Shown here: one piece after another, positions 5,669 to 33,290 of the stretch
Layout: every line of letters starts with the position of its first letter
Numbering within the stretch: position 1 is the stretch's first letter
DNA from: Thermoleophilia bacterium UBA2241
Lineage (GTDB): Bacteria > Actinomycetota > Thermoleophilia > UBA2241
NCBI GenBank assembly: GCA_002347645.1
Contig: DDYF01000034.1
Location: 1,907-65,906 of the forward strand
Reading direction: 5' to 3'
DNA: 64,000 nucleotides
Notes under the pieces: model-generated
Databases searched by the model: none
What the model saw: the letters and a program-made list of their open reading frames with translations, nothing else
Told to the model about the DNA's origin: nothing
Made by a program: the position numbers and the translations under genes

Positions 5669-6388
5669 ATGGAAGCTGAGCCGGAGCGAAGCGTCACCTA
5701 CACGATGCCGAACGGGGCCCAGATCGTGCTTCGTCAGCCGACCACACCCACGGCCGCCGATGTCGCGAGACGGTACCTGGACAAGGGGTTGTGGGAGCAG
5801 GCGATCGTCGAGCTCGAGAAGGCGCGACGCTCGAGCCCGGGCGACGCCGAGGTCTTCGGACTGCTCGGCTCCATCTACCTCGCGCACGACCGCTACGCCG
5901 ACGCAGTCTCCGCCCTCCAGGCGGCGACACGACTGGCGCCGGACGACGCGTGGTGGCGCTTCAAGCTCGGCGTCTCGCACGGATGGGCGGGCGATCAGGA
6001 TCGAAGGCGCACGGAGCTGGAGGCCGCCGTGGGCCTGCGCCCCGACTTCGCCGACGGCTACGCCGAGCTCGGACAGGCATACCACGACGAAGGCAGAGCG
6101 TCCGACGCGGTCGCCGCGTGGGAGAAGGCCGTCGCTCTCGGGTCGACTGTCGCCGAGGCTAGCTACAACCTCGGCGCCACGTACTTCCAGAGCGGTCGCG
6201 CCGAGCAGGCCGTGCCGCTCCTGGAAACGGCCGCACGCACGGGCACGGAGATACTCGCCGGTCACGCGCACTTCGCACTCGCGCTGACGTTCCAGGCTCT
6301 CGGAAGGGACCCCGAAGTCGTCGTAGGCGAGCTGCGGCAAGCGGCGGCGTTGGGCGACGAGCAGGCGCGGCAGATCCTGAGCCAGTGA
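5669..6388 (+). CDS. TPR-repeat protein (239 aa)
   Basis: Internal ATG (residue 103 of ORF 5363..6388), preceded by AGGAGG about 5 nt upstream. Repeated A..Y...G.....A...a..A..l.P TPR-like units. Its stop overlaps the GTG start of the next gene (GTGA at 6385-6388). Confidence 0.7.
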   Translation: MEAEPERSVTYTMPNGAQIVLRQPTTPTAADVARRYLDKGLWEQAIVELEKARRSSPGDAEVFGLLGSIYLAHDRYADAVSALQAATRLAPDDAWWRFKLGVSHGWAGDQDRRRTELEAAVGLRPDFADGYAELGQAYHDEGRASDAVAAWEKAVALGSTVAEASYNLGATYFQSGRAEQAVPLLETAARTGTEILAGHAHFALALTFQALGRDPEVVVGELRQAAALGDEQARQILSQ

Positions 6389-8439
6389 TCGCAAGGCGCG
6401 CGGCCGCTGAGCTGCGCCAGGTCTGGGGTGCCGTCACGCTCTCGGTCCCCGTCGTCGTGCAGGACCCAGCGCAGTTGGCAGGACAGCTCGTCGGCAGGCT
6501 TCTGGGCAGCGAAGGCCGAGGCGTCGCCAGACTGCTCCGGCAGGCTGAGCAGTGGCATGGGCGGCCGTGGCTCCGGCCTCTCGCTCCCAGCTTGGCGCCG
6601 GGAGGCGGGCCGCTGCGTCAGGCTCTTGTCATTCCCCAGCACCCAGTGAACGCTGGCGAGAGCCTCCCCAAGCCGGGCTACTTCGATGGCCTCATGGCGC
6701 CGGTCTACCGGCTCGCGGTGTCTACCGACGGCACCGTTGCCGTCGCGGCCGACCTCGAGGGTCATGTCCACGCATGGGACCTGACCTCGGGTGTTCGCCT
6801 GTGGGAGTGCGACGCGAGCGGGCGGCTTGCGGACGCGGTCGCGATCTCCCCCGACGCCAAGAGGGCGAGCGCCGCCTTCGATGATGGGAGCCTGACCACG
6901 TGGGATATGGCCACCGGCACACAGGTGTCGGTGACGCCAGCGCTCGGCGAGGTGGTGGCCCTGTCGCACGACGCCGGAGAACCGTGCGCGCTCGTGGCAC
7001 GCGACGGGCAGCTCTGGCTCTCGTGCGCCCACCGGCAGCGGGCGATACCGATCGGCGCTCTCCCCGCCGGCCTCGGGCCGGCAGCGCTCGCGCCGCGGTG
7101 CGGCCGAGTGGTCGCGGCCGACGGGAGCGATCTCTGGGTCTGGGACCCCGACGCGGGCCTCGTTGCCGGTCCGCTGCCGGGACACGACGACGCCATCCTG
7201 TGCCTGACGGTCACCCCGGATGGACGCCGGGCGGTGACCGGCTCGAAGGACAAGACGCTCATCGTGTGGGACAGCGAGTCGGGGAAGATCGTCTCCACGC
7301 TCATCGGTCATTCGGGTTTCGTGCTCGCCGTCTCCACGGGCACGGGAGCTTCGGGAGGCAGGGCGGTGTCCACGTCCATGGACCGGTCCGTGATCGTCTG
7401 GGATCTGGACGCGGGCGACGCGAGAGGCGTCCTCGATAGCCCCGTGAGCTTCGCGCGAGCGGCGATCTCGGCTGACGCGGCGACCGTGGTCACGACGACC
7501 CCGGAGCGCGCCCTGCGGATATGGGACCTCGGACGGTGGGAGGAGTCCTCCGCGGGTGACGCGGCGACGGACCTCGCCAACCTGGTCGCCGCGGCGCCGT
7601 CGTGCGACCGGTGCGTGATCGTCTCGTACACGGACAAGATCCGGCGGTGGGACCTGACGCCCTATGTGCGAGGCGGCATGCAGGTCGGCCAGAGCGGGAT
7701 CTTCGGTGTCTGGGCGCTCGCCGTGACCGCGGACGGGCGACGCGCGGTGACTGCCGGCTCGGGCCGCGACGTGGAGATCTGGGACCTCGAGGAACCCTCG
7801 CTCGTGCGGAGGTTCGAGGTCCCACACGAACGGATCAAGTCCGTCGCGGTGACTGCCGACGGAACACGCGTCGTCTCGATCGCCGATGAGTCGCTCGCCG
7901 TTTCCGACTTGGGAACCGGGCAGCTCCTGTCCCATGCCAAGATCAACGGAGTCGAACGTGTGCTTCCCACTGTCGAGGCAGATCGTGTGCTCGCCCTCGG
8001 CGCGCACTCACTGAGCGCTCTCGTGCTTCCGCCCGGTGGCGAGCCGAGCCTTGAGGCCGCCCTGGAGGACGCGTCGACGATCCTGCTGAGCCGCGACGGG
8101 CGCTCTGCGGTCCTGACGGACGAGTCAGGCCGAAGGTGGTTCGTGACGTTCGAGGGTGAGAGGCGCCGGGTGCCCCTGGCCGCCGCGGACGGGTTGTGGA
8201 GTCTGGCGGTGCCGCCGGGATCCGGACGCATCGTGGGCGCGGCGAGCTCGACGGACAGCCGCTCGACGCTGGTGGTCTCGGTGTGGGATGCCGAGACGGG
8301 GTGCCGGCTCGCCACGGCCTCGTTCTCGGGCGATCTGCGACCTCTCAAGTCGGCATCCGTCTCGCTCGACGGGACGCGAGTCCTGGTCTGTGACAACGGC
8401 GGGCGGACGCACTTCCTGGAGCTGTGCGGATTCGGCTGA
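6385..8439 (+). CDS. WD40/beta-propeller repeat protein 1 with a non-repeat N-terminal leader
   Basis: 684-aa ORF. Contains units such as GHDDAILCLTVTPDGRRAVTGSKDKTLIVWD and GHSGFVLAVS. The leader contains RPWLRPL before the first blade. Translationally coupled to the upstream TPR gene. Confidence 0.8.
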   Translation: MIARRAAAELRQVWGAVTLSVPVVVQDPAQLAGQLVGRLLGSEGRGVARLLRQAEQWHGRPWLRPLAPSLAPGGGPLRQALVIPQHPVNAGESLPKPGYFDGLMAPVYRLAVSTDGTVAVAADLEGHVHAWDLTSGVRLWECDASGRLADAVAISPDAKRASAAFDDGSLTTWDMATGTQVSVTPALGEVVALSHDAGEPCALVARDGQLWLSCAHRQRAIPIGALPAGLGPAALAPRCGRVVAADGSDLWVWDPDAGLVAGPLPGHDDAILCLTVTPDGRRAVTGSKDKTLIVWDSESGKIVSTLIGHSGFVLAVSTGTGASGGRAVSTSMDRSVIVWDLDAGDARGVLDSPVSFARAAISADAATVVTTTPERALRIWDLGRWEESSAGDAATDLANLVAAAPSCDRCVIVSYTDKIRRWDLTPYVRGGMQVGQSGIFGVWALAVTADGRRAVTAGSGRDVEIWDLEEPSLVRRFEVPHERIKSVAVTADGTRVVSIADESLAVSDLGTGQLLSHAKINGVERVLPTVEADRVLALGAHSLSALVLPPGGEPSLEAALEDASTILLSRDGRSAVLTDESGRRWFVTFEGERRRVPLAAADGLWSLAVPPGSGRIVGAASSTDSRSTLVVSVWDAETGCRLATASFSGDLRPLKSASVSLDGTRVLVCDNGGRTHFLELCGFG

Positions 8440-8527: not shown

Positions 8528-8962
8528 TCACATCTCGACGCGCTTCTTGCCGCCCCACGTCGCCTTGATCTTGTCGTCGTACTCGTTGGTGCTGTACGCG
8601 ACCAGTTGGACGGCGAGCTCCAGCTCCGCCTGGTTCAGGTAGTCCCCGAGCAGCGCGTGCTCGACGTGGACCTCCTGACGCTCGGGGTAGAGGGCGAGCT
8701 TGCCGAACAGGATCTTGCTGTTCGCCTCCGCCAGGAAGATGCCGAGGTCGCCGTCGATGCGCATGCCCTTGACGCAGAGTGCCTCGACCTTCACCACCGT
8801 ACGCCCGTCGGGGAGCTCGCGCGGCATGACGAAGACCTGGACGCCCTGTTCGAACGGCAGGACGAGGTCCTCCTGCGCGTCGGTGAGGAACGGGATCCCG
8901 CTGTTCGTCAGGTAGCGCTTGCAGGCCTCGCGCAGCGCGGCGAGGTGGCTCTGTCCGGTCAC
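8528..8962 (-). CDS. small alpha/beta protein, tentatively YbjN/T3SS-chaperone-like
   Basis: GTG start at 8962 (residue 29 of ORF 8528..9046) overlaps the stop of the upstream gene (GTGA). 144 aa, VTGQSHLAALREACKRYL...LFGKLALYPERQEV...AYSTNEYDDKI. Family assignment is tentative. Confidence 0.55.
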   Translation of the reverse strand: MTGQSHLAALREACKRYLTNSGIPFLTDAQEDLVLPFEQGVQVFVMPRELPDGRTVVKVEALCVKGMRIDGDLGIFLAEANSKILFGKLALYPERQEVHVEHALLGDYLNQAELELAVQLVAYSTNEYDDKIKATWGGKKRVEM

Positions 8963-9414
8963 GACTGATCCTCCAGATCCCATCCGCACTTCCTGCACCA
9001 CTTCGCGTCGGGCGGGTTCATCGCCCCGCACCCGGGCCGCAGGCACTTGCGCGGCGCGGGGCCGGGCCCGCCCGCGGACTTGCCTTCTGCATCGTCCGCA
9101 CGCGCCGGGCCGCTGCTGTGCCCCACGAGCATCATCTCGGTCATGCCGACGCGGACGATGTCGCCCTCGTGCAGCGGGTGGCTGCCGGTGACCTCTGCCC
9201 CGTTCAGCCAGAACGTGACCTCGCAGGTCAGCTTCACTCCCTCGTCGCCGACCTCGAGCTCCACGTCGTCGAGGTCCTTCGGGCCGAGGCCGCTACCGGG
9301 CGGGGGACCGAGGACTTCGCCCTCGAGGACGACACCCTTGTCGGTGATCGCGAAGGTGAGCCCGTCGTTCGGCCCCGCGACGATCTCGAAGCCGGCCTGC
9401 CACTCGGCGCTCAC
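8959..9414 (-). CDS. FHA-like beta-sandwich protein with a C-terminal zinc ribbon
   Basis: 151-aa ORF. NGAEVTGSHPLHEGDIVRVGMTEMML resembles the C-terminal half of FHA domains, but the SR.H motif was not seen. The tail CLRPGCGAMNPPDAKWCRKCGWDL is a CxxC...CxxC ribbon. The GTG start overlaps the Clp stop. Confidence 0.6.
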   Translation of the reverse strand: MSAEWQAGFEIVAGPNDGLTFAITDKGVVLEGEVLGPPPGSGLGPKDLDDVELEVGDEGVKLTCEVTFWLNGAEVTGSHPLHEGDIVRVGMTEMMLVGHSSGPARADDAEGKSAGGPGPAPRKCLRPGCGAMNPPDAKWCRKCGWDLEDQS

Positions 9415-11807
9415 AGGGTACCGATCCCGTCCGGCGCCCGGGGGGCCTGGCGCGGCTCCACCTCGAACGCGAGCTTCTTGCCCTTCGTGCGCAAGCGTAC
9501 GGTGTCGTTCTCGTTCACGGTCCCCTTGAGCAGCTCGTTCGACAGCGGCTCGCGGACGAGGTCGTCGATCGTCCGCCGCAGCGGCCGGGCGCCCATGGCC
9601 GGGTCGAATCCGTGCTTCACGAGCAGGCCGAGGGCGCCCGGGGTGGCTTCGACGCGCATCGGCAGCCGGCTCAGCATGACCTTGGCGATGCGGCGCAGGT
9701 CCTTCTCCCCCAGGGCGTTGAACACGAGGATCTCGTCGAAGCGGTTGCGGAACTCGGGCGCGAAGGCGTCGGCCAGGTCGGCGTAGATGGCGCGCCGAAC
9801 CTCGTCCGCCGACGGCATCTCGTCCTTGACGATGCGCAGACCGAGGAAGCGCTTGCCGGAGATGCTCCGCGACCCGACGTTCGACGTCATGACGATGATC
9901 GCGTTGCGGAAGTCAGCTTGGCGCCCGAGGCCGTCCGTCAGCCTGCCCTCGTCCATCATGCCCAGTAGCAGGCTGTGGACGGCGGGGGCGGCCTTCTCCA
10001 CCTCGTCGAAGAGGACGACCGAATAGGGGTCCTTGCGGATCGCCTCGGTCAGCATGCCGCCCCGCTCCGAATTGACGTAGCCCGGCGGAGACCCAATCAA
10101 GCGCGACACGAAGTACTCGCTCGACGACTCACTCATGTCGATGCGGATAAGGCGGTCCTCGTCGTCGAAGAGCACCGCGGCCAGCGACTTGGCGAGCTCG
10201 GTCTTGCCGACCCCCGTGGGCCCCAGGAAGAGGAAGCAGCCGATCGGCCGCATGGGATCGCCGAACTTGGTGCGCGCGGTACGGATCGACTGGGCGACGG
10301 CGACGACGGCGTGGTCCTGCCCCACGACGCGCCTTCGCAGCGCGTCCTCGAGCTCCAGCAGCCGGTCGGCCTCGCTCGCCTTCACCTTGCCGACGGGGAT
10401 GCGGCGCCAGCTCGACACGGCCAGCGCGACCTCGTCGGCGGTGACGGCGAGGTCGGCGCCGGGCGCCGGGTTGCCGGCGTGCTCGAAGAGCGTGCGCCGC
10501 TGCTCCGGCGCGAGGTCGCTCAAGTCGAGGTCGCGGAGGCCCAGCCACGCGCGCATGCGGGTCTCGGCGCAACTGCGGTCGATGAGCTCGAGGGCCTTGT
10601 CGGGAAGGCGGCGGTCGGTCACGTAGCGCATCGACAGCTCCACGGCCGCGCGCACCGCGTCGTCGGTGATGCGGACGTTGTGGAACTCCTCGTAGCGGCT
10701 GCGCAGACCGGCGAGGATCTCGAGCACCTCGTCCGACCTCGGCTCGGGCACGCGCACCATGGCGAAGCGACGCTCGAGGGCGGGGTCCTTCTCGAAGTAC
10801 CGCCGGTACTCGTCGTGCGTCGTCGCGCCGATGACGGTGATCTCGCCGCGGCTGAGCGCCGGTTTGAGGATGTTGGCCGCGTCCATCGTGTCGTGCACGC
10901 CGACCGAGCCGGCGCCGACCAGCATGTGGATCTCGTCGATGAACAGGATCAGCTTGGGATCGTCCCGCGCCTCCTTGATGAGCGCCTGGAGCTTCTCCTC
11001 GAGGGTGCCGCGCACGCCGGTGCCGGCGACGATGTTGGCCACCTCGACGGTGCGGATGCGCTTGCCCATGAGCTGCGGTGGGACGTTGCCGTGCGCGATC
11101 AGCTGCGCGAGGCCTTCGACGACGGCCGTCTTGCCGGTTCCCGGGTCGCCCACGAGCACGGGGTTGTTCTTCTCGCTCTTGCAGAGGACGGAGATGAGCT
11201 GCAGCATCTCCATCTGGCGTCCGATGACGGGACGAAGCTTGCCGGCGCGCGCCAGGGCGGTGAGGTCGCGGCCGAGCGTCTCCATGAGCTCGCTCGACGA
11301 AGCCAGCTCGGGCTGCTCGATCGTGGTGCGGCCGCGGTAGGCGCTCTCGGTCCACTCGTAGGCGGCGATGAGGTCGCGGACCGTCTGGGCGAGTGCCGCG
11401 GGATCGGAGCCCATCGCCTTGAGCGTGCGCGCCGGCAGGCCGTGCTCCTCGGCGAGGACGGCGAGCAGGACGTGCGGCGCCCACACCACCTGTTCGGCGT
11501 TGTCCTTGGGCCGCACCGCCAGGGCGAGCCTCTCGGCCTCCTGCATGACGCGCTTCGCGCGCAGCGTCAGGCCGAGATCGTCGCCGTCCGGGAAGACCTC
11601 CCCGCTCGCCTTCTCGCGCACGCGGCGGGCGGCCTCACCGATGTCGGTGCCGGTGCCGGCGAAGCGCCGGAGCAGGCTGACGTCGTCGAGCGCGACCACG
11701 CCCAAGAAGAGGTGCTCGACGCCGAGATAGCGGTGGCCAAGATCGGCTCTCGCCCGCTCGGCATGCGAGACGACGAGCTTGGCCGAGTTGCCCAGTTCGA
11801 CGCCCAT
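9411..11807 (-). CDS. ClpA/ClpC-type two-ring AAA+ unfoldase (Clp_N repeats, no long M-domain)
   Basis: 798-aa ORF. Clp_N-like N-terminus (HRYLGVEHLFLGVV, APHVLLAVL). D1 has GDPGTGKTAVVEGLA and LFIDEIHMLVGAG. D2 has GPTGVGKTELAKSLA and VVLFDEVEKA. RFLGLR sits where ClpA has its IGL ClpP-docking loop. GAGGGGGG lies ahead of the ATG. Confidence 0.9.
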   Translation of the reverse strand: MGVELGNSAKLVVSHAERARADLGHRYLGVEHLFLGVVALDDVSLLRRFAGTGTDIGEAARRVREKASGEVFPDGDDLGLTLRAKRVMQEAERLALAVRPKDNAEQVVWAPHVLLAVLAEEHGLPARTLKAMGSDPAALAQTVRDLIAAYEWTESAYRGRTTIEQPELASSSELMETLGRDLTALARAGKLRPVIGRQMEMLQLISVLCKSEKNNPVLVGDPGTGKTAVVEGLAQLIAHGNVPPQLMGKRIRTVEVANIVAGTGVRGTLEEKLQALIKEARDDPKLILFIDEIHMLVGAGSVGVHDTMDAANILKPALSRGEITVIGATTHDEYRRYFEKDPALERRFAMVRVPEPRSDEVLEILAGLRSRYEEFHNVRITDDAVRAAVELSMRYVTDRRLPDKALELIDRSCAETRMRAWLGLRDLDLSDLAPEQRRTLFEHAGNPAPGADLAVTADEVALAVSSWRRIPVGKVKASEADRLLELEDALRRRVVGQDHAVVAVAQSIRTARTKFGDPMRPIGCFLFLGPTGVGKTELAKSLAAVLFDDEDRLIRIDMSESSSEYFVSRLIGSPPGYVNSERGGMLTEAIRKDPYSVVLFDEVEKAAPAVHSLLLGMMDEGRLTDGLGRQADFRNAIIVMTSNVGSRSISGKRFLGLRIVKDEMPSADEVRRAIYADLADAFAPEFRNRFDEILVFNALGEKDLRRIAKVMLSRLPMRVEATPGALGLLVKHGFDPAMGARPLRRTIDDLVREPLSNELLKGTVNENDTVRLRTKGKKLAFEVEPRQAPRAPDGIGTL

Positions 11808-11884
11808 CGACTGCCCCCCTCGCGATCCCCAGCGGCCGGTCGGGGCCGACTATAGCACCGCCGTGGCGGACGGCATCGGGAGCC

Positions 11885-12256
11885 TTACGCCCAAGCGATG
11901 AAGCCCAGGCCGCGGTCGGCGCAGATGCGGAAGAGCTTCCGCAGTTGGCGGATCTCATCGGGGGTGGGCGTGAATCGCTCACCGAGGTCGAGCCGATCGC
12001 AGACCGTCTCGGGGTCGCAGGCGCTGAGCTTGTCGGCCATCCCGGCGAGGGTCTCGGGCGGAAGCCACTCGTGGTAGAGCGACTCGCCGGTGACCTCCAG
12101 CACGAACTCCGCATAGACCTTGCCACGGAACGAGGTGACGCCGTCGCTGAACATCCCACCGCACAGGTCGATGCCGGACTCGGTGAGAGCGCGCTCGTCC
12201 TCGGGGGTGAGCACGACCTCGTCCGGCGAGCGCGAGACGACGTTGTCCAGTCCCAT
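11885..12256 (-). CDS. small-protein family member A1 (123 aa), first gene of the Clp operon
   Basis: Internal ATG (residue 219 of ORF 11885..12910; the upstream part is shadow of the + strand gene). MGLDNVVSRSPDEVVLTPEDE...SFRGKVY...WLPPE...DEIRQLRKLFRICADRGLGF aligns with four paralogs in this window. Confidence 0.7.
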   Translation of the reverse strand: MGLDNVVSRSPDEVVLTPEDERALTESGIDLCGGMFSDGVTSFRGKVYAEFVLEVTGESLYHEWLPPETLAGMADKLSACDPETVCDRLDLGERFTPTPDEIRQLRKLFRICADRGLGFIAWA

Positions 12257-12433
12257 CACTTCCCCTTCGTGCTCCTGTGCGGCAGGCGCGCCGCGCGGCG
12301 GCGTCGCCTGTCCGCGTCCCTCTGATTGATGCCAGAGTCTACCCACCGCAGGGCACTCCTTCGGCCGCTCGGGGGTACGATAGCGCCGAGGGGGCGAGGA
12401 GCCGCTCCTTCCGGCGACGCGAGGGGGTTGACA

Positions 12434-13942: not shown

Positions 13943-14295
13943 GCCTCGACGTCTTCCTGTCGCGGTCGCCGGACGACGTCGTCGTGGCGCCCGAGGACGA
14001 GGCTGCCTTCGCCGGGCTCAACGTCCACGTCAACGAGTGGGTCGGCACCGGCTCGTTTGGCGGCAAGAGATACATCGAGGTGGTCGACCACGTCGGCGAC
14101 GTCGTCCTGGGGTACAAGTGGGTCCCGCCCGAGGACGTCGTACGCATGGCCGCTGCGTTTGAGGCGCGCGACCCCGAAGAGGTCGCGCGCGAGAGCGTTG
14201 AGGACGCCTTTCCCGTCACCGCCGATCAGGTGCGCGGCCTGCGCCAGCTCTTCCGGTTCTGCGCGGACCGCGGCCTCGGGCTGCTCGGGATGTAG
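13939..14295 (+). CDS. small-protein family member A2 (118 aa)
   Basis: GTG at 13939 overlaps the upstream TGA (GTGA). VSLDVFLSRSPDDVVVAPEDE...GSFGGKRY...WVPPEDVVRMAAAFEARDPEEVA...TADQVRGLRQLFRFCADRGLGLLGM. Confidence 0.75.
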   Translation: MSLDVFLSRSPDDVVVAPEDEAAFAGLNVHVNEWVGTGSFGGKRYIEVVDHVGDVVLGYKWVPPEDVVRMAAAFEARDPEEVARESVEDAFPVTADQVRGLRQLFRFCADRGLGLLGM

Positions 14296-16606: not shown

Positions 16607-17002
16607 ATGAGGCCTCTGCCGTGTCTCTTCGGAATGCACCTCTGGGACCACTGCCGCTGCGCACGATGCGGGGCGCTGCGTGACCACGAGCACGACTGGC
16701 AGGGGACCTGCACGTGCGCCGTCTGCGGAGCCACCAGGAACGAACACCACCAGTGGGTCGGATGCCGATGCCGGATGTGCGGCGCGGAGTTGCATAAGTT
16801 CATCCCCGCCGGCCCCGAAGAGCACAGCTGCCGGCGGTGCGGCCTCGTCGAGCCGCATGCGCTCGTGACCGATGCGCGCTGGGAGGACTGGGGTGGGTGG
16901 GACTCGATCGGGCCGTGGCGGGCGCAGGAGAACGAGTATCTGATCTGTCGCCGGTGCGGGTGGGAGGAGTTCGTCAAGTCCACGGGGAGGATCCAGGTCT
17001 AG
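16607..17002 (+). CDS. Cys/His/Trp-rich small protein with three tandem H.W..C.C..CG units plus a terminal CxxC
   Basis: MRPLPCLFGMHLWDHCRCARCGALRDHEHDWQGTCTCAVCGATRNEHHQWVGCRCRMCGAELH...CRRCG...ICRRCGWEEF. GGGAG lies about 10 nt upstream of ATG 16607. No family recognised. Confidence 0.5.
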   Translation: MRPLPCLFGMHLWDHCRCARCGALRDHEHDWQGTCTCAVCGATRNEHHQWVGCRCRMCGAELHKFIPAGPEEHSCRRCGLVEPHALVTDARWEDWGGWDSIGPWRAQENEYLICRRCGWEEFVKSTGRIQV

Positions 17003-17148
17003 GACGTCCTGCTCCAGACGCCTGGGGTGCAGAGGCACCTGTCCGGTACGCGGAGCGCTGGACCGCTTCAGTCGTGCGTGGCACGATGGAGACGAGCTCA
17101 GCGAACGGGCAGGCCCCCTGGGGGGTCACCGGCGAGAAGGATGAGGAC

Positions 17149-26157: not shown

Positions 26158-28263
26158 ATGGCTGCTCAGAAGAAGACGGTCGCCGTCGTCGGCGACGTGA
26201 CGATCGACTGGATGGTGATGAACCCCGGCGGCGCGCCGTCGATGATCGAGTACCCCGACATCTGGGGGAGCTACCTGTGCCGCGCCGCGGCGCAGCCGGG
26301 CGGAGCGGCGATGCTGGCCGCACTGCTGGAGGCGCTTGTCGCCGGCGACCCTGCGCTCGCGAAGACGTACCGCGTCACGGGTCCGGCGGTGCCGTCGCGA
26401 GCGCTCGCCTCGCCGGCCTACGACGGCCTCAACCTCACGTGGACCTCGTGGGCCCTGCACCCGCGGAGCCTGGCCGAGAAGAAGGCGTTCGCTTGGCGCA
26501 TGGTCAGCTTCTGGGGGCAGAGCGGTCCCGAGGGCGCCGGCGACCTCGGGCAGGTCTACCCGGCGGACGGGTCGGCGCCGGCGATCCTCGCCGTGGACGA
26601 TTCGCGGCTGGGCTTCCGCGACGCCGAGCAGGTCTGGTCGCGCCTCGTCGAGGCCCAGGAACCGCCGCGGGCGGTGGTGCTCAAGATGACGGCGCCGCTG
26701 ACGACCGGCCCGTTGTGGCAGCGGCTTAGCGCGAGCCACGCGGACGCGCTCACGGTGGTCGTACCGGTCAACGACCTGCGCAAGGGCAGCGTGCAGGTCG
26801 GGAATCCGTTGTCGTGGGAGCGGACGGCGCAGGAGATCGACGTCGCCGTGCGCTCGACGGGTCTGATCAAGGCCGCGCGAGTCGTCGTCAATCTCGGTCC
26901 CGCCGGAGTGATGCTGGTCGAGCGCGACGGCGGGTTCACCCTCGTGTTCGACCCGCGCGCCCAGGAGGGTGACTGGGAGAAGCAGCACCCCGGGCTGGTC
27001 CTGGGCTACGCGACCTGCGTGTCCGCCGCGCTGGTGCTCGACGCCCTGCGCGGAGGCGACGATCCGTCGCTCCTGCTCGATCAGAGCATCCAGGCCATGC
27101 GCGCACTGCACTCAGAGGGATACGACGTGGTCGACGCCGGAGGCGCGCCGATGAGCGTCGACGACGCCAAGGACGCGCGGCGCGTGCACGGGCTTCGCTT
27201 TCCGTACGGGGCGGTCGCGGCTGCCTTTGCCGGCGACCGTCCCGCCGCGTTCGCCCAGCTTCATCTGCCCGAGGCACCGAAGACCGGGTCCAGCATCCTC
27301 GTCCAGTCCTTGGGCGAGCGGGACCTCGCTGCCGTCGCCTGTCAGGCCGCCGTGGCGGGACCCGAGAGCCTGCCCTCAGGCATCCCCGTCGAGGCCGTCG
27401 GCAAGTGGTCGTCGGTCGACCGCAGCGAGATCGAGGGCATGCGCGCCGTGCGCAACATCATGGCCGGCTACATCGCGGACTTCCTGCGCGGCGCGCGCCT
27501 CGAGCGCCCGCTCTCCATCGCCGTCTTCGGCCCGCCCGGCGCCGGCAAGTCGTTCGCCGTCAAGCAGATCGCGAAGGTCCTGCTGCCCGGCAGGCTGGAG
27601 ACGGTCACCTTCAACCTGTCGCAGTCGCGCTCCGAGGACGAGCTGCCGCAGGCCTTCCACCAGGTCCGCGACATGGTGCTCAAGCAGGCGCTGCCGCTCG
27701 TGTTCTGGGACGAGTTCGATACGCCGTTGGCCGGTGAGCGCCTAGGGTGGCTCCGCTACTTCCTCGCCCCGATGCAGGACGGGGAGTTCCGCGAGGCCGG
27801 GGCGTTCCACCCGGTCGGGCCGGCGATCTTCGTCTTCGCCGGCGGCACGTGCTCCACGCTCCAGCAGTTCGCCGAGACGCGCGACGAGGAGGCCGAGAAG
27901 GCGGCCAAGAAGCCCGACTTCCTGAGCCGGCTCAAGGGCTACGTCAATGTGTTCGGTCCCAACCCCGTCGGTCCGGACGACGTGGCCTTCATGCTTCGTC
28001 GCGCGCTCCTGCTGCGCGGCATGCTCACGGGCAAGGCGCCGCAGCTGTTCCAGAGAGGCAAGCTCCAGATCGACGACGGTCTGCTGCGCGCCTTCATCGG
28101 GATCGATCGCTACCGGAACGGCGCACGGTCCATGGAGGCGATCATCGACACCAGCGCCCTCGGCGGCAGGCTGCTCTACGAGCGCTCCAGCCTGCCGCCG
28201 GAAGGTCAGCTCGCGCTGCAGGTCGACGCGCGCGCGTTCCTGGATCTCATGGAGCGCGCGTGA
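26158..28263 (+). CDS. fusion of a degenerate PfkB/ribokinase-like domain with a classical AAA+ ATPase module
   Basis: 701-aa ORF. The N-half has KTVAVVGDVTIDWMV and GGAAMLAALLEAL. The site where PfkB kinases carry DTxGAGD reads QHPGLVLGYATCVSAAL. The C-half has Walker A VFGPPGAGKSFAVKQ and Walker B PLVFWDEFD. Confidence 0.8.
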   Translation: MAAQKKTVAVVGDVTIDWMVMNPGGAPSMIEYPDIWGSYLCRAAAQPGGAAMLAALLEALVAGDPALAKTYRVTGPAVPSRALASPAYDGLNLTWTSWALHPRSLAEKKAFAWRMVSFWGQSGPEGAGDLGQVYPADGSAPAILAVDDSRLGFRDAEQVWSRLVEAQEPPRAVVLKMTAPLTTGPLWQRLSASHADALTVVVPVNDLRKGSVQVGNPLSWERTAQEIDVAVRSTGLIKAARVVVNLGPAGVMLVERDGGFTLVFDPRAQEGDWEKQHPGLVLGYATCVSAALVLDALRGGDDPSLLLDQSIQAMRALHSEGYDVVDAGGAPMSVDDAKDARRVHGLRFPYGAVAAAFAGDRPAAFAQLHLPEAPKTGSSILVQSLGERDLAAVACQAAVAGPESLPSGIPVEAVGKWSSVDRSEIEGMRAVRNIMAGYIADFLRGARLERPLSIAVFGPPGAGKSFAVKQIAKVLLPGRLETVTFNLSQSRSEDELPQAFHQVRDMVLKQALPLVFWDEFDTPLAGERLGWLRYFLAPMQDGEFREAGAFHPVGPAIFVFAGGTCSTLQQFAETRDEEAEKAAKKPDFLSRLKGYVNVFGPNPVGPDDVAFMLRRALLLRGMLTGKAPQLFQRGKLQIDDGLLRAFIGIDRYRNGARSMEAIIDTSALGGRLLYERSSLPPEGQLALQVDARAFLDLMERA

Positions 28264-28844
28264 GCGTCGCCGATCGGGCGGACAGCGCCCCGGCGCCGGT
28301 GCCGGCGGACGGGAAACCGGCGCCGGGCGACGCGCGGGTCATCCGCGTCGGCGTGACCGGCCACCGGACGTTCGACGACCCCTGTGGGGCGGCGCGTCGC
28401 GTGCGCGAGGGCCTGCGCCGCGTGCTCGCCCTGGCCGGCGACGAGGGCGACGGCGCCCGTGCACGGCTCGAGATGATCTCGGCGCTCGCCGAGGGTGCCG
28501 ACCGGCTCGTCGCCCGCGAGGCGCTGGCGCTGCCGGGCACGACCCTGTCCGTCGTGCTGCCGTTCACGGCGGACGACTACGCGCGCGACTTCGAGACAGA
28601 GGAGTCGAAGCGGGAGTTCGCCGAGCTCCTCGCAAGGGCGCAGGACGTCGAGGTGATGCCTGCCACGCCCACGCGTGAGGCCGGCTACGAGATGCAGGGG
28701 CGCCGCATCGCCGACCGAAGCGACGTTCTCGTCGCCGTGTGGGACGGCGAGGGTTCTCGCGGGCAGGGCGGCACGGCGGAGATCGTCGCCTACGCCGCCG
28801 AGAATGGCGCCCTGCTGATGTGGGTCAGGGTGCAGCGGCCCTGA
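28260..28844 (+). CDS. SLOG-superfamily (LOG/DprA/YpsA-like Rossmannoid) protein
   Basis: GTG at 28260 overlaps the upstream TGA. IRVGVTGHR...ISALAEGADRLVAREAL...LSVVLPFTADDY..DF...SDVLVAVWDGEGSRGQGGTAEIVAYA follows the YpsA/SLOG motif order as I remember it. Confidence 0.65.
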   Translation: MSVADRADSAPAPVPADGKPAPGDARVIRVGVTGHRTFDDPCGAARRVREGLRRVLALAGDEGDGARARLEMISALAEGADRLVAREALALPGTTLSVVLPFTADDYARDFETEESKREFAELLARAQDVEVMPATPTREAGYEMQGRRIADRSDVLVAVWDGEGSRGQGGTAEIVAYAAENGALLMWVRVQRP

Positions 28845-28870
28845 GAACGGTGGGCGACGACGAGGCACAG

Positions 28871-30730
28871 ATGACGAGCGCCGCGACGTCGGGGGCGGCG
28901 CGCGGCCCCGGGGCGGAGGGCGAAATCGCGCCGCGTCGCGCGGCACGGCCCCGGCGCCTGCGCGACGTCGTGCGCCGGACGCAGTGGCCGGCGGTCGTGG
29001 CGGCCGCCGCCGTCGCGCTCGTGCTCGGCTACGCCGGCTTCGTACGCTACATCGAGGCGGCTGGCGAGTCGCCCACCTTCTGGGACATCCTCTATCGTGA
29101 CCTGCAGCTTTTCACGATGGAGTCCGGCTCGGTGAGCGGCTGGGTGCCGTGGGAGCTGCAGGTCGCGCGCTTCCTCGCCCCTGCCGTGACCATGGTGACC
29201 GCGGTCGCCGCGATCGCGGCGCTCCTCAGCGAGCGTCTGAGCCTCGCCCGCCTGCGCTTCGTGAGCGACCACACCGTGATCTGCGGGTTGGGGCGCAAGG
29301 GACTGCGCGTCGCCGAGGCGCTTGCCGACCGGTCCGAGCGGGTCGTCGTTATCGAGAACGACGAGCTCAACGACCACGTCGAGCGGCTGCGCGAGCGCGG
29401 GATCACCGTCCTCCTGGGCGACGCCGCCGACCCGCAGCTCCTGCGCCGGGCCCGCGCCGGCCGCGCGAAGCGCGTGCTCGCGGTCTGTGGCGACGACGCC
29501 GTCAACGCCGAGGTGGCGCTGCGCTGCCGGGAGCTGAGCCGCGAGAGCAGCGGGTCGGCGCTGGACTGCCACGTGCACATCGTCGACGGCGACCTCTGCC
29601 GCCTGCTGAAGGAGCAGGAACTGCGCGGCTCCGGCGAGGACCTCATGCGCCTCGAGTTCTTCAACGTCTTCGAGAGCGGCGCCCGCATCCTCGTCCGCCA
29701 GTACCCGCCGTTCGCACGTGAGGACGCGACGGCCGTCGGCCCGACGCCGCACGTGCTCGTCGTTGGGTGCGGGAACATGGGCAGCAACGTCGTGGCGCGC
29801 TGCGCCCGGGATTGGTGGCGCGCGGGTGCCGGGAGCGAGCGTCGCCTGACGGTCACGGTGGTCGACCGGGAGGCGCGTGCGAGGTGCGCGGCCATGGAGA
29901 CGCGATGGCCGCGTCTCGTCGAGTCGTGCGAGCTGGTCCGCGCCCCGATGGACGTGACCTCGGCGGCGTTCGAGCGCGGCGAGTTCCTTGAGGGCAACGC
30001 CGAGGGCCGTCCGCCGGTGAGCATTGCCTACGTCTGCCTCGACGACGAGTCGCGCGCGCTCAGCGCGGCACTCGTCCTGCATCGCCGCACGCGGCACCGC
30101 CCGCTGCCCGTCGTCGTGCGCATGGCGTTCGACACCGGGCTGGCCAGCCTCGCCGCCGGCGCTGGCGGCTTCCCCGGGTTGTCCGGTTTCGCCGTCATCA
30201 GTTGGGTCTGCGAGCCCGACCGCCTCTTCGCGGGGACGCACGAGACGATCGCCCGCGCGATGCACCGGAGTTACTCGGCCGAGCAGCTCTCACTCGGGGA
30301 GACGGAGAGCACCAACCCGGCGATGGTGTCCTGGGAGCGCCTGTCGGAGGAGTACCGCGAGTCGAACCGCCGCCAGGCCGACCAAGCGGTCGTCAGGCTC
30401 GGCGCCGTGGGTTGCGACATCGCGCCCTTGTCCGACTGGGAGGCAGAGCGGTTCACGTTCACCGAGCGCGAGATCGACGACATGGCGCGTATCGAGCACG
30501 AGCGCTGGCGCGAGGAGCGCCGCGCGGCGAAGTGGACGTACGCCCCAGGTCCCAAGGACGGCGCGCGCAAGACCAATCCGCTCCTGGTCAGCTGGGACGA
30601 CCTCCCCAAGAAGGTCAAGGAGGAGAACCGCGTCATCGTACGCGAGCTACCACACTACCTCGCGGACGTGGGACTGCAGGTCGTCCGGCTCGCTGCGCCG
30701 GACGCCGCCTCGGCGGACACGACCCGCTGA
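28871..30730 (+). CDS. membrane protein: 2 TM helices, RCK/TrkA_N NAD-binding domain, and two C-terminal RyR-type repeats
   Basis: ATG at residue 45 of ORF 28739..30730. Hydrophobic WPAVVAAAAVALVLGYAGF and APAVTMVTAVAAIAALL. HTVICGLGRKGLRVAEALADRSERVVVIEND is a GxGxxG Rossmann motif. IARAMHRSY...NPAMVSWERLSEEYRESNR and MARIEHERWREER...NPLLVSWDDLPKKVKEENR are the RyR-type repeats. Confidence 0.8.
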   Translation: MTSAATSGAARGPGAEGEIAPRRAARPRRLRDVVRRTQWPAVVAAAAVALVLGYAGFVRYIEAAGESPTFWDILYRDLQLFTMESGSVSGWVPWELQVARFLAPAVTMVTAVAAIAALLSERLSLARLRFVSDHTVICGLGRKGLRVAEALADRSERVVVIENDELNDHVERLRERGITVLLGDAADPQLLRRARAGRAKRVLAVCGDDAVNAEVALRCRELSRESSGSALDCHVHIVDGDLCRLLKEQELRGSGEDLMRLEFFNVFESGARILVRQYPPFAREDATAVGPTPHVLVVGCGNMGSNVVARCARDWWRAGAGSERRLTVTVVDREARARCAAMETRWPRLVESCELVRAPMDVTSAAFERGEFLEGNAEGRPPVSIAYVCLDDESRALSAALVLHRRTRHRPLPVVVRMAFDTGLASLAAGAGGFPGLSGFAVISWVCEPDRLFAGTHETIARAMHRSYSAEQLSLGETESTNPAMVSWERLSEEYRESNRRQADQAVVRLGAVGCDIAPLSDWEAERFTFTEREIDDMARIEHERWREERRAAKWTYAPGPKDGARKTNPLLVSWDDLPKKVKEENRVIVRELPHYLADVGLQVVRLAAPDAASADTTR

Positions 30731-30776
30731 CGCCCGTGCGCGGCCGCAGTCGATCGAGCTCCGAGACGGCGGCGGC

Positions 30777-33290
30777 GTGAGCTCGAATCGAGGTCTCGTC
30801 ACCCTGATCTCCCTCGTGCTGTTGGGCCTTGGGTCGGGGTTCGGCGCCCTGGCCGGCAGTGTCGTCGTCGGCCTGCTCGTGGGCGCCGGGTTCATCCTCG
30901 TGTGGTTGGGCTGCGGTGCCGTGGAGATACGCGCCTACGGCCGCGCCTGGTTCGCGATCGGCGCCGGCGTGGTCTCGACGGTCGACGCCATGTGGCTCGG
31001 CGACATGGCCGGCCGCTGGCTGTGGCTGCCGGCCCTGCTCGTGATGGGCGTGGCGATCGCCGTCGCCGGCAGCAGCGCGTGGAACGACAGCCGCCGCCAC
31101 GGCGAGGCGCTGGTCGCCCTCGGCATCCTCGTCATGGTCTTCGCCGTCCTGGCGCCGATCGTCGTCTATCCGTCCCTCGCGGGACCGACGGAGGCGGCCG
31201 GGGGTGGGTCGGGCGCGTTCAGCGCCGCCGACGGCCTGTCGGCCGTCGGCGGCGCCCTCCGCGAGGCGGCCACCTCGCTCTGGGGGTGGATCGACCTTGC
31301 CGCCCTTGTGCTGATCGGCCTCGCTTCTTGGCGCCGCGCCGGCGCCGAGCTCGCCCCAGCGCTGGCCGTGGCCGCCGTCTTCATTGCCGGGGGGGTCTCC
31401 GCCGGCGCCGGGGAGACCGTCGCCGCTGCGGCCGGGGCCAGCCCGGCGTCGTGGCTCAAGGATCTGCTGCTCGCCTCGGACGAGCACTTGGGCTCGGCAG
31501 GATGGGGGGTCCTCGCCCTGAGCGCCGGTGTCGTGCTCGCGTCGCTGCCGGTCCTGCGCAAGCTCGTGGTCATGAACCAGGTCGCCGTCGCCGCGAGTCG
31601 CGCCGAGGGGAGCGACGCCGTTGCGGTTGCCCGCTTCGTGACGCTCGAGGGATACGGCACCGGTTGGTCGTCCGTCATCGTCCTGGCCTACGAGATCCTG
31701 TACATCGGCACGGCGGCGATGCTCTGGGTGGGCCTCCGGTGGGCCGCCGGCGACGCGAGCGCGCTGCCCTTCGACGTCATCCGCATCCCCGACCTGGCGG
31801 TGCCCAGCTTCCGTCCGGTGTGGGAGGTCTCGTACTTCTCGCTGGCCGTCATCCTGGGCGCCTCCGCCGTGCTCACCGGGCGCGTCTTCGCCCGCATCTC
31901 GGTGTCGAAGCGCGTGCCCGTCTTCACGAGCCCCGTGTGGCAGATGGGCATCGCCATCTTGGCGGCCTTCGTGGCGCCGGCAGGGGTCCTGCTTTACGGC
32001 ATCGGCATCACGTGGCTGCAGACTGGGGCGGTGCTGTCTCCGGGCAAGCCCGCGCGTCTGCTGCACGACGAGAGGTACGCCACGGGCGTGTCCGGCACGC
32101 TGGGCACGAACGTCATCATGCCATCGAGCGGCAGCGAGCCGTCCGCAAAGACGACCGGCGCAGGTGCGGGGACGGCCACGGGCGACTCCGCCGCGACGGC
32201 GGCGGGCGGCGGAAGCCCTGCCTCAGGGTCTCCGGGCGCGGAGGGCGAAGGGAGCGGAGCGATGGGCGGAGGGTTCGACGACAAGCCGATCTGGGAGCGG
32301 AACGACGCGGACGAGCGCCCGATCTGGGCGGAGGCGGATGCGCCCGGCGGGGACACCGGCGACGGCGGCGCGGCAGGCGGCGCGGCCGCCGCGGGCGAGC
32401 CGTCACCACCTGCCGTCACGCCGCTGTTCGACGCCGGACCGCTCGTCGACATCGCACGCATCGGCGAGGACGACTACGTGGTCCTGAGTGAGGAGGGCGA
32501 CATCACCCTCTTCCGCCGCGGATCGGCCGTCTGCGACAAGCGCGTGGCCGTTGTGAGGCCCCTCGGGCTGGGCCCGATCCCCCAGTGCCGCGCTGCGTTC
32601 GTCGACGGTGGCGGCCGGGTCCTCGACCTGTCCTTCAGTGACGAGACCGACGACGACGACCGAGGGATCGCTGCCGTCAGGGTGCAGCATTCGGGTGTGA
32701 TCGAGGAGGCGACGTGCTTCGCCGTGAGCCCGTCGGGCGCGCTGGTCGTGACCGGCGGCGGAGAGAAGGCGCAGGTGACGGGGTTCTTCCTCACGAGTGA
32801 GATCGCCCGTGTCCTGTTCAAGGGCGTCGAGCCGGCGACGGCGCTCGGCTTCTCGCCGGACGGCCGCGTACTGGCCGTCGGATCGGCGAGCGGCGACGTC
32901 CACTTGGTGGACGTCGGCGGTCAAGGTGTCGTGGCCGTCCTCAGTGCCGGCCGGGCGTCGGGTCGCGGGGTCGTGGCGGTCACTGGTGCTCCGGACGACA
33001 GCTGGCTCGTCGCCAGCGACGACGAGCGAGTCGCGGTGTGGCGTGGAGGCGAGCCGCTGCGCAGTGTCGACGCTGGAGGAGAGATCACCGCCCTGACGGC
33101 CGACGGCGATGCAGGCACCGTGGCCGTCGGGACGGCGTTCGGACTCGTCCGGGTCCTGGGCGCCGACCTCGGGACCCAGCTTGCCCAGGAGCGGCCGTTC
33201 GCCGCCGAGGTCCGCCGCATCGTGTGGGTCGACGACGCCGTAGTGTGCGCGGCGGTGGATGGCCGCATCCGGCGCATCAGATTGAAGTGA
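30777..33290 (+). CDS. polytopic membrane protein (about 10 or more TM helices) with a Gly/Ala/Ser-rich linker and a C-terminal WD-like beta-propeller
   Basis: GTG at residue 252 of ORF 30024..33290, just after the upstream stop at 30730. The N-terminal ~420 aa is a run of hydrophobic helices. The linker contains DDKPIWERNDADERPIWAE. The C-terminus has blades such as LGFSPDGRVLAVGSASGDVHLVDV and VDGRIRRIRL. Confidence 0.7.
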   Translation: MSSNRGLVTLISLVLLGLGSGFGALAGSVVVGLLVGAGFILVWLGCGAVEIRAYGRAWFAIGAGVVSTVDAMWLGDMAGRWLWLPALLVMGVAIAVAGSSAWNDSRRHGEALVALGILVMVFAVLAPIVVYPSLAGPTEAAGGGSGAFSAADGLSAVGGALREAATSLWGWIDLAALVLIGLASWRRAGAELAPALAVAAVFIAGGVSAGAGETVAAAAGASPASWLKDLLLASDEHLGSAGWGVLALSAGVVLASLPVLRKLVVMNQVAVAASRAEGSDAVAVARFVTLEGYGTGWSSVIVLAYEILYIGTAAMLWVGLRWAAGDASALPFDVIRIPDLAVPSFRPVWEVSYFSLAVILGASAVLTGRVFARISVSKRVPVFTSPVWQMGIAILAAFVAPAGVLLYGIGITWLQTGAVLSPGKPARLLHDERYATGVSGTLGTNVIMPSSGSEPSAKTTGAGAGTATGDSAATAAGGGSPASGSPGAEGEGSGAMGGGFDDKPIWERNDADERPIWAEADAPGGDTGDGGAAGGAAAAGEPSPPAVTPLFDAGPLVDIARIGEDDYVVLSEEGDITLFRRGSAVCDKRVAVVRPLGLGPIPQCRAAFVDGGGRVLDLSFSDETDDDDRGIAAVRVQHSGVIEEATCFAVSPSGALVVTGGGEKAQVTGFFLTSEIARVLFKGVEPATALGFSPDGRVLAVGSASGDVHLVDVGGQGVVAVLSAGRASGRGVVAVTGAPDDSWLVASDDERVAVWRGGEPLRSVDAGGEITALTADGDAGTVAVGTAFGLVRVLGADLGTQLAQERPFAAEVRRIVWVDDAVVCAAVDGRIRRIRLK

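Follow-up and report, generated by a model that had tools for sequence, protein, structure and literature searches.

In the Thoeris defence the signal consists of cyclic ADP-ribose (cADPR) isomers, and the SLOG domains of ThsA are described as sensing these isomers and acting as the cADPR receptors of the system. Characterised DUF4062 enzymes instead make linear ADP-ribose (ADPR): in a 2026 preprint DUF4062 is reported to be a TIR-like NADase that converts nicotinamide adenine dinucleotide (NAD+) to ADPR and nicotinamide (10.64898/2026.05.01.722283). It is the effector of the single-gene antiphage systems Swarozyc and Evangelion, and the human proteins TEP1, NWD1, NWD2 and NPHP3 display a DUF4062-NACHT-helical-WD40 architecture (10.64898/2026.05.01.722283; 10.64898/2026.06.25.731849). 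On the phage side, proteins with a RyR domain use a His/Trp pocket, conserved in the ryanodine receptors of animals as well, to bind or cleave 2'cADPR and 3'cADPR (PMC13232231). Here we analyzed a 64,000-nucleotide stretch of contig DDYF01000034.1 from Thermoleophilia bacterium UBA2241 (assembly GCA_002347645.1), hereafter the window, in which 21 genes (G2–G22) lie between an RlmL gene (G1, 2879–5260, minus strand) and a CooS gene (G23, 33480–35357, minus strand). The operon at 20.6–33.3 kb of this block is a recurrent module of NAD/ADP-ribose-linked domains, namely DUF4062, SLOG, RyR, a ribokinase fold and RCK. None of these DUF4062 systems and human proteins has been described with partners of the G19, SLOG or RyR type, and a full-text literature search returned no paper joining RyR, SLOG, ribokinase(-AAA+) and (DUF4062-)NACHT in one system. 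We favor, with moderate confidence and on the basis of gene content, homology, predicted folds, fusions and co-occurrence, the reading that the block is a variable immunity-type island of about 27 kb in this soil actinobacterium, encoding a STAND-controlled, Thoeris-like defence based on NAD-derived signalling.

The G+C content of the window is uniform, at about 70% throughout, which makes raw lists of open reading frames (ORFs) noisy; genes were called from the bias in third-position G+C (GC3), and the block proteins were scanned with the Pfam, PADLOC and NCBIfam models. A preliminary description of this DNA, made from the letters alone, had proposed an NLR-like conflict or signalling system of about 22 genes. 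GC3 calling gives 21, and the proposed protein types were recovered: five beta-propeller proteins (G3, G10, G15, G17 and G22, by Pfam), three TPR-type proteins (G2, G14 and, through a weak TPR-S match, G8), three P-loop proteins (the NACHT protein G18, the Clp-type double AAA+ protein G6, and G19, whose PfkB-like-AAA+ fusion is right at the level of fold), two TIR-like N-terminal domains (in G18 and G8), a two-transmembrane (2-TM) protein with RCK and RyR domains (G21), zinc ribbons in G5, G11 and the C-termini of G10 and G17, and five copies of a 120-amino-acid protein (G7, G9, G12, G13 and G16). The reported 4-nucleotide start-stop overlaps occur at six junctions of the block. The SLOG-like label of G20 and the FHA-like label of G5 stand in weaker form only. 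The conflict-system reading is supported as a whole, and is narrowed here to the NAD/ADP-ribose-linked module.

G18 (23511–26120, plus strand; start possibly 23541) contains a DUF4062 domain at residues 19–105 (PF13271, E = 1.9e-10, 41.2 bits versus a cut-off of 24.7), a NACHT NTPase domain at residues 387–553 (PF05729, E = 1.3e-10, 41.8 bits versus a cut-off of 26.7) with the P-loop GGSGSGKST, and a helical domain. When 33 DUF4062 segments were aligned, the motifs RVFxSSTFxD, DLRWG, CLxE and LLGxRYGW were each conserved in at least 80%, and we infer that the Glu of CLxE is the published catalytic Glu of DUF4062. These motifs, including the putative catalytic Glu, are shared with the "NIR" domain of Swarozyc and Evangelion; in contrast to G18, each of those systems consists of one gene, whose product has a stalk or AUX region and no NACHT. 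The upstream gene G17 (20947–23391, plus strand) encodes a WD40 protein (E = 9e-136, 12 stretches) with a C-terminal zinc ribbon. The DUF4062-NACHT-helical-WD40 order of TEP1 and NWD1 is therefore present in the window in split form, over G18 and G17, and NACHT and WD40 occupy one ORF in Humibacillus (1820 amino acids; comparison locus L016) and in locus L094 (about 1970 amino acids). Judged by its predicted architecture, G17 is a split-off repeat arm of the NACHT protein G18. TEP1-like bacterial proteins carry a TROVE domain (10.64898/2026.06.25.731849), and Pfam found none in G18 or G17. G18 resembles the bacterial NACHT/NLR-like and Avs proteins in its NACHT NTPase, which is preceded by a predicted enzymatic effector domain, and activation by oligomerization would be expected; the repeat sensor, however, is encoded by G17 and not within G18 (the two are joined in L016 and L094), the sole PADLOC match to a STAND model is marginal (Avs1b, 3.7e-4), and G18 forms part of a conserved module of several genes that includes G19, G20 and G21.

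Two further WD40 genes resemble G17. G10 (14316–16514, plus strand; WD40 E = 1.2e-129, 11 stretches) consists of a helical N-terminal linker, about 11 repeats and a C-terminal zinc ribbon, and is a paralogue of G17 with 42% identity over the full length; G15 (18413–20587, minus strand; start possibly 20431; WD40 E = 8e-41) has the same N-terminal linker. The helical segment common to the three proteins, AFSRAL.RELHN...QQLHNRL...PWL, is presumably the linker that follows the NACHT module in NACHT-WD40 proteins. The WD40 proteins are, beyond what the preliminary description had noted, split-off sensor arms of STAND proteins. In G10 the DNA repeat has a period of 126 bp, with 8.7 copies and 69% matches. 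Hyper-homogenized WD40 repeats such as those of fungal NLRs were looked for and not seen, the identity of the DNA repeats being just 69–80%. A zinc ribbon of the form C..CG....WC..CG.DL is common to the C-termini of G10 (16400–16514), G17 (23280–23391) and G5 (8959–9040), and may serve as a docking tag shared by the WD40 arms and the Clp operon.

G19 (26158–28263, plus strand) encodes a protein of 701 amino acids in which Pfam detects no PfkB match and only a weak AAA match. An AlphaFold2 model built from a 32-sequence alignment had a predicted local distance difference test (pLDDT) score of 87.8. Foldseek matched its N-terminal half at a probability of 1.0 to adenosine kinase and to HldA (4e8z), ribokinase (6ilr) and ketohexokinase (2hlz), the last three with TM-scores of 0.5–0.6 normalized to the target, and its C-terminal half, likewise at a probability of 1.0, to ClpB-NBD2/Skd3. 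At least 766 homologues of G19 were found, many of which carry a C-terminal RyR domain. The next gene, G20 (28260–28844, plus strand), overlaps G19 by 4 nucleotides, and at least 1825 homologues of it were found. Its own sequence gives no Pfam match at E values up to 10 and no PADLOC match, and the SLOG assignment, weakly supported, comes through 29 of its homologues, which gave matches at E values of 0.002–0.02 to YpsA (10), YAcAr (7), cpYpsA (5) and Nuc_deoxyrib_tr (5). Sequence searches of PDB chains with G20, G19 and the profile of the 120-amino-acid family returned noise only, and looking up G18, G13 and two homologues of G20 by exact sequence matched no record.

The protein encoded by G21 (28850–30730, plus strand) resembles a 2-TM channel, with transmembrane segments at residues 46–68 and 105–133 followed by two Rossmann/RCK domains with GxGxxG motifs (TrkA_N, E = 8e-23) and two RyR repeats (E = 3.8e-13 and 3.8e-3; PF02026, 49.9 bits versus a cut-off of 27.4). 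The loop between the transmembrane segments (29080–29250, residues ~76–133) looks like the pore helix of a K+ channel, with FTMESG in place of the TVGYG filter. Because this selectivity filter is degenerate, the pore is suggested to be non-selective. The second RyR repeat has the HxxW motif (EHERW), in which at least 70% of 119 segments keep the His, and HxxW is likewise widespread in fused RyR domains. The residues of G21 that correspond, by motif mapping alone, to the catalytic Asp and the further His of phage RyDEP proteins (RyR/R12 glycosidases and sponges) are Asn (KTNP and ENR); because the mapped catalytic Asp reads Asn, the G21 domain may bind rather than cleave its ligand. RyDEP proteins share PF02026 with G21, but the RyR domains described here are host-encoded and fused to a channel with RCK domains or, in relatives, to the G19 ATPase. 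The last gene of the operon, G22 (30777–33290, plus strand), encodes by its hydropathy profile a polytopic membrane protein of about 9–10 transmembrane segments, with a low-complexity linker and a C-terminal beta-propeller (WD40-type matches at residues 640–831). Its orthologue in locus L003, 44% identical, adjoins the G21 orthologue.

The clustering of these genes exceeds chance, since their families recur together elsewhere. When JGI metagenomes were scanned with the alignment of G19, at least 491 relatives came to light, and 80 of these loci were sampled and annotated by profile searches. In 53 of the 80 the G19 homologue carries a fused RyR domain, of the 65 loci whose flank reaches at least 1.2 kb 34 have a SLOG-like gene next to it, and four of the 80 contain a triple fusion of G19, RyR and SLOG. 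Among the 36 loci with flanks of at least 4 kb, 19 contain a DUF4062(-NACHT) gene, a G21-like 2TM-RCK-RyR gene, or both. The full set is present in L094: a G19-RyR fusion, a SLOG gene, a G21-like gene, the DUF4062-NACHT protein and then a gene of the 120-amino-acid family. L021 contains G19-RyR, a SLOG-like gene and DUF4062-NACHT-TPR. In the cultured bacterium Humibacillus xanthopallidus DSM 21776 (L016) the NACHT-WD40 ORF is followed directly by a small-family gene, and the opposite strand encodes a SLOG-like protein and a G19-RyR fusion of 915 amino acids. In an Actinomycetes metagenome-assembled genome (MAG; L003/L006) the order is TIR_2, WD40, small-family gene, G20 (64% identity), G21 (56%), G22 (44%), small-family gene, YbjN, G5-like gene and Clp. 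In Actinomycetota, Chloroflexota and metagenomes alike, the same families thus co-occur, in changed order and also fused to one another. From these fusions and recurrences follows functional linkage within G17–G21 and, separately, within the set of small protein, Clp and YbjN.

Two side observations concern these loci. Upstream of the system in L003 (positions 1–3100) stand a ThiF (E1-like) gene and several small genes, which may form a separate ubiquitin-like conflict module. In L013 (3393–5900, minus strand) and L017 (12207–14699, plus strand) we found a protein of 830 amino acids with the architecture RelA_SpoT-TPR(-S)-LSDAT(SLOG)-RyR, adjoined in L013 by a NUDIX hydrolase gene (5904–6347, minus strand); by its domains, this protein is a candidate for an alternative effector on the theme of SLOG/RyR receptors.

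The site at which the block resides varies among relatives. These were reached through the 120-amino-acid protein, and the nearest of them are uncultured Thermoleophilia MAGs, in four of which (L001, L004, L008 and L009) an RlmL gene adjoins the interval. In L004, a contig of 1.57 Mb, and in L008 the distance from rlmL to cooS is about 6 kb and holds few genes; one belongs to the small family, and the STAND, WD40, Clp and RyR genes are all absent. L001/L005 has an island beside rlmL that lacks G2, G3 and G8 and has PCC and RecQ genes instead, and L009 has another version of the island with a second Clp/YbjN/NACHT set. The interval is therefore a hypervariable slot whose place in the chromosome is itself conserved, as is seen for defence islands. 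The preliminary description had suggested this comparison and had held that a syntenic block, invariant in all relatives, would speak against a conflict system; since the interval varies among relatives, invariance fails. Compared with L001, the closest relative, G6, G17 and G18 are 85–91% identical, and the N-terminus of RlmL about 64% identical over residues 5–207, the part held in L001 and hence the extent of the comparison. This gap in identity could reflect a recent exchange of island segments or merely a poorly conserved RlmL N-terminus.

A second linkage, absent from the preliminary description, joins the 120-amino-acid family to a Clp-like ATPase and a YbjN-type chaperone. G6 (9411–11807, minus strand) is a divergent Clp/Hsp100 double AAA+ ATPase (AAA_2, E = 1.5e-57; AAA_lid_9, ClpB_D2-small and Clp_N) with an N domain, no M domain and two Walker A motifs. 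It does not reach the ClpA, ClpB and ClpV cut-offs of NCBIfam, scoring 603 bits versus a TssH cut-off of 885. Membership of well-characterized housekeeping families had been named in the preliminary description as a second sign against a conflict system; the NCBIfam scan returned nothing above curated cut-offs for the block, and by these scores no block gene exceeds the cut-offs of housekeeping families. G6 reads FLGLRIV at the position of the ClpP-docking loop of ClpC and ClpA, and its LGL is a putative ClpP-docking loop. In the same operon, G4 (8528–8962, minus strand) encodes a peptide-binding chaperone of the YbjN/TY-Chap1 type (PF22551, E = 2.2e-10), the start at 8962 being backed by an orthologue of 144 amino acids in L001, and G5 (8959–9414, minus strand) combines an N-terminus weakly similar to FHA (Yop-YscD_cpl, E = 0.08) with the C-terminal zinc ribbon (Zn_Ribbon_1 and DZR, E of about 2e-3). 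The first gene of this operon is a small-family copy, G7 (11885–12259, minus strand), 44–53% identical to G9, G12 and G13 by BLASTP. YbjN/TY-Chap1 genes adjoin a Clp-like gene in L003, L009, L010, L013, L014 and L017, and Clp-like, YbjN/TY-Chap1 and small-family genes stay together in the Chloroflexota loci L010, L013, L014 and L015, the trio being linked in Actinomycetota too.

The other copies of the family are G9 (13939–14295, plus strand), which overlaps the stop of G8 by 4 nucleotides and ends 20 nucleotides upstream of G10; G12 (17086–17514, plus strand), whose conserved part begins at 17149; G13 (17531–17890, plus strand), the reference sequence of the family analysis; and G16 (20614–20934, plus strand). 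The mutual identity of the five is 34–63%. G16 is a decayed copy: about 15 codons are deleted, a frameshift near the 3' end places the conserved C-terminus "LRQLLLLCATRGLGLLGM" in another frame, and the L001 orthologue is intact. Small-family genes pair with WD40/STAND genes in the window (G9–G10 and G16–G17) as well as in L016 and L094. With sequences clustered at 90% we collected 367 homologues, and clustering at 50% gave 479 clusters; of the 150 best-scoring representatives of these 479, nearly all are standalone proteins of about 120 amino acids that match from residue 1. Invariant residues are D4, SFRGKVY, W61 and a C-terminal WW. AlphaFold2 predicts a compact fold for G13 (pLDDT 94.8), and Foldseek found nothing significant in the PDB, the best match being YfbM at E = 0.35; its only structural matches were two uncharacterized viral proteins. 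The family corresponds to no Pfam family. In the Chloroflexia MAGs L011 (8074–9171 and 9247–9840) and L012 (10789–12852) the small gene lies beside long HEAT/PBS-lyase-type repeat proteins, in L011 also beside a small P-loop protein, and these take the place of WD40, Clp or NACHT genes. In L019 (an Actinobacteria MAG, UBA2279) and L020 (a Coriobacteriia MAG) its neighbor is a CxxxCxxC protein, putatively of the radical-SAM/HemN type by look alone.

Also beyond the preliminary description, the 120-amino-acid family has, by sequence similarity, homologues in phages. Clear homologues are encoded on 25 IMG/VR viral contigs of 22–55% G+C (L103–L127), in which SFRGKVY is invariant, an N-terminal MGLD nearly so, and most copies end in WW or WY. 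The contigs are real phage genomes, because the neighbors of these genes encode a single-subunit phage RNA polymerase, thymidylate synthase and ribonucleotide reductase (RNR). The family is absent from PHROGs and was not found by tblastn in 50,697 GenBank phage genomes, so that the link to phages rests on the IMG/VR contigs.

The remaining genes of the block are mostly sensor-like proteins. G8 (12326–13942, plus strand) combines a TIR/NDT-like N-terminus, matched by the PADLOC TIR effector model at residues 95–153 (E = 5.4e-8), with a helical sensor resembling TPR-S (E = 4.5e-4, weak), and has orthologues in L007 and L009. The TPR protein G2 (5363–6388, plus strand; TPR_11, E = 3.9e-21, and other TPR models) overlaps by 4 nucleotides the WD40 beta-propeller protein G3 (6385–8439, plus strand; WD40 and beta-propeller models); the start of G2 is uncertain, and the ATG at 5669 used in the preliminary description is possible. 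A small TPR protein, G14 (17973–18416, minus strand; TPR_12, E = 6e-6), lies downstream of G15 with a 4-nucleotide overlap and is kept in L001 and L002. G11 (16634–17002, plus strand) is Cys-rich, with repeated CxxC pairs and weak zinc-ribbon Pfam matches alone, and has orthologues in L001 and L007.

Set against the described systems, the locus resembles Thoeris in co-encoding a predicted TIR-fold NAD+ enzyme with a SLOG-like protein and ADPR-ligand domains, from which the logic of a signal, a receptor and an abortive effector would be expected. It differs in several respects: PADLOC matched no ThsA or ThsB model to G8, G18 or G20, and G8 matched a generic TIR "Effector" model alone; no SIR2 or Macro domain was detected in the block; the SLOG protein is standalone and its similarity, seen through homologues, is weak; the TIR-like domain is a DUF4062 fused to NACHT with a WD40 arm; and the putative receptors include RyR, a ribokinase fold and RCK, with a 2-TM channel as the predicted effector. 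The ternary NTP-dependent conflict systems of multicellular bacteria (Kaur et al. 2020, PMC7159879; 2021, PMC8195603) share with the block a STAND NTPase, hyper-modular WD40/TPR sensors, TIR and SLOG folds, a chaperone-type threshold component and a domain common to several components, here the zinc ribbon. However, no vWA-MoxR pair and no iSTAND/VMAP, Death-like or EAD domain was detected in the block, where a marginal bpMoxR match falls inside the Clp D1 domain of G6 and no vWA domain is present; full-text searches of those two papers found no mention of RyR, ribokinase/PfkB, DUF4062 or YbjN/TY-Chap. The island resembles a hybrid of NLR/STAND and Thoeris-type NAD+ signalling, but by its domain content it falls outside Thoeris, the vWA-MoxR ternary systems and the type VI secretion system (T6SS).

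How such a hybrid might work can be sketched. The WD40 arms G17, G10, G15 and G3, together with the TPR proteins G2, G8 and G14, would act as sensors. Upon ligand recognition, the NACHT protein G18, with its split arm G17, would oligomerize and gather its DUF4062 domains, and NAD+ would be cleaved. The TIR-like G8 may act in parallel, with G8, G9 and G10 perhaps forming a second input. The ADPR-type product, a drop in NAD+, or both would be read by G20, by G19 and by G21 through its RCK domains and RyR repeats, all of them domains that elsewhere bind ribose or ADP-ribose nucleotides. G21 is the likely executioner, a non-selective 2-TM channel that would dissipate the membrane potential, with G22 as a possible membrane partner, and the outcome would be growth arrest or abortive infection. 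The unfoldase G6, the chaperone G4, G5 and the 120-amino-acid proteins would provide a module for threshold or reset; in the preferred version, the WD40-STAND proteins would be partnered or inhibited by the labile 120-amino-acid protein, the Clp machine would act on the latter, and phages would carry its homologues as mimics. Our confidence in this specific relay is lower than in the general reading. In its sharpest form, in which a RyR/SLOG receptor set comprising a 2-TM RCK channel and a ribokinase-fold AAA+ protein reads an NAD+-derived nucleotide made by the DUF4062-NACHT-WD40 protein, while the small protein is turned over by Clp/YbjN and copied by phages to disarm the system, we propose it only tentatively.

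Several observations weigh against the STAND-controlled signalling defence. Characterized DUF4062 proteins deplete NAD+ on their own, so that no downstream relay is required. The families also occur apart: 17 of the 36 long-flank G19 loci have neither a DUF4062 nor a G21-like gene, L022 has G19 alone, just two of the 80 G19 loci have a small-family gene, L003 has the G20-G21-G22 and Clp modules with no NACHT within 10 kb, and in L011, L012, L019 and L020 the small family has no detected partner. A single transcript for the whole block is impossible because of the strand switches at G3/G4, G7/G8, G13/G14 and G15/G16. The G19 family reads FDPxxQEGDWE at the GAGD position, where the Gly-Asp pair is kept and the rest altered, and the SLOG label of G20 and the FHA label of G5 rest on weak matches. 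Neither mobility genes nor a compositional anomaly was found for the block, and PADLOC, a check proposed in the preliminary description, matched no model of a known system.

The strongest rival takes the island to be several independent systems at a shared hot spot, with G17–G18 as a self-contained abortive-infection NLR that depletes NAD+, G19-G20-G21(-G22) answering to a trigger of its own, and Clp/YbjN/small protein with the extra WD40 and TPR genes separate again. The separate occurrences just listed, together with Chloroflexota loci that have Clp and the small gene without NACHT or G19, the strand switches within the block, and the protection afforded by the single-gene DUF4062 systems Swarozyc and Evangelion, make this a possibility to be taken seriously, though we consider it doubtful. 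Unrelated neighbors would be unlikely to share a chemistry, yet SLOG, RyR, the ribokinase fold and RCK, and NUDIX in relatives, all point to the ADPR that DUF4062 produces. G19/SLOG stands beside DUF4062-NACHT in distant lineages (L016, L018, L021, L040, L043, L045, L052, L075, L091–L094 and L102), and within the window the zinc ribbon common to G5, G10 and G17 and the small genes extend across the supposed boundaries. The block is, as the preliminary description had likewise not noted, a mosaic of modules and not demonstrably a single machine.

A narrower alternative, the main one for these proteins, concerns the 120-amino-acid family, whose members could be binders of a small molecule, acting as sponge, buffer or enzyme for the nucleotide signal, with host copies setting the threshold and phage copies serving as anti-defence sponges. 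Standalone proteins of this size that match from their first residue, with invariant polar and aromatic residues and a compact, confidently predicted fold, would suit such a role; the phage copies lie among early/nucleotide-metabolism genes, a frequent place of anti-defence genes, and phage sponges of similar size are known, such sponges being discussed in the RyDEP paper (PMC13232231). However, neither fold nor sequence matches a known sponge or enzyme, and a protein-protein role accounts better for small genes that are tightly linked to those of a Clp unfoldase and a peptide-binding chaperone and are paired with WD40 genes, so we regard a binder as rather unlikely.

Improbable, in our judgment, is a role outside immunity, in stress or developmental signalling by an actinobacterium of filamentous or complex organization, where for example G21 would serve ion homeostasis gated by NAD(H) or nucleotides, G6 and G4 proteostasis, and the STAND/WD40 proteins the regulation of physiology. 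Regulators of the WD40, TPR and STAND types are common in Actinomycetota, K+ transport is what RCK/TrkA_N domains normally gate, Clp and YbjN have housekeeping relatives, and the lack of mobility genes, of a G+C anomaly and of a PADLOC system match would be in keeping with it; but island genes are present or absent at the same site among close relatives, the K+ filter of G21 is degenerate, G6 reaches none of the Clp equivalog cut-offs, roles in phage defence and evasion have been reported for the DUF4062 and RyR families, the small family has phage homologues, and related loci encode a toxin-like alternative effector (RelA_SpoT). A mobile-element reading was dropped, for, as the preliminary description had observed, the Pfam, PADLOC and NCBIfam scans found no integrase or transposase domain among the block proteins, the window has no tRNA, and no G+C shift was seen. 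A T6SS-like reading (ClpV, FHA and chaperone) was dropped as well, G6 being below the cut-off and the core T6SS genes missing: no TssB/C, Hcp or VgrG domain was detected in the block.

Both flanks are housekeeping genes outside the system. The left one, G1, is an RlmL-type rRNA methyltransferase (Pfam RlmL_1st, THUMP, UPF0020 and Methyltrans_SAM), and the right one, G23, is CooS (Prismane/CO dehydrogenase; PF03063, E = 4.8e-137). The region 33480–41213 consists of CO-metabolism genes, encoding CooS, ferredoxin, alpha and beta subunits like those of pyruvate:ferredoxin oxidoreductase (PFOR), a Crp/CooA-like regulator and a polyferredoxin, and is syntenic with L004. The rest of the window is ordinary metabolism and transport, including ferredoxin, PFOR, the Crp/CooA-like regulator, an aldehyde dehydrogenase and an Opp-type ABC transporter; at 42–48 kb, where an Opp/Dpp-type ABC transporter is encoded, the G+C content is lower (about 66%). 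Promoter and terminator scans gave no information at 70% G+C.

If the favored reading of the block as a STAND-controlled, NAD-derived signalling defence is true, it would represent an unnamed immune module, fairly widespread among bacteria of soil, sediment and peat (JGI metagenomes contain at least 491 loci of the G19 type), and would extend TIR/NAD+ signalling beyond Thoeris. Bacterial RyR domains would gain a first cellular role, as receptors of ADPR-type signals and not as phage evasion tools, and the 120-amino-acid MGLD/SFRGKVY proteins would constitute a new phage-host protein family and a candidate anti-defence factor. The module would further unite, in one prokaryotic pathway, the TEP1/NWD-type NLR NADases and the ADPR/cADPR-modulated channels of the RyR/TRPM type, which have so far been separate in eukaryotes. 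As a bacterial counterpart of TEP1 and NWD1 with identifiable downstream partners, it may help to show what the human DUF4062-NACHT proteins signal to.

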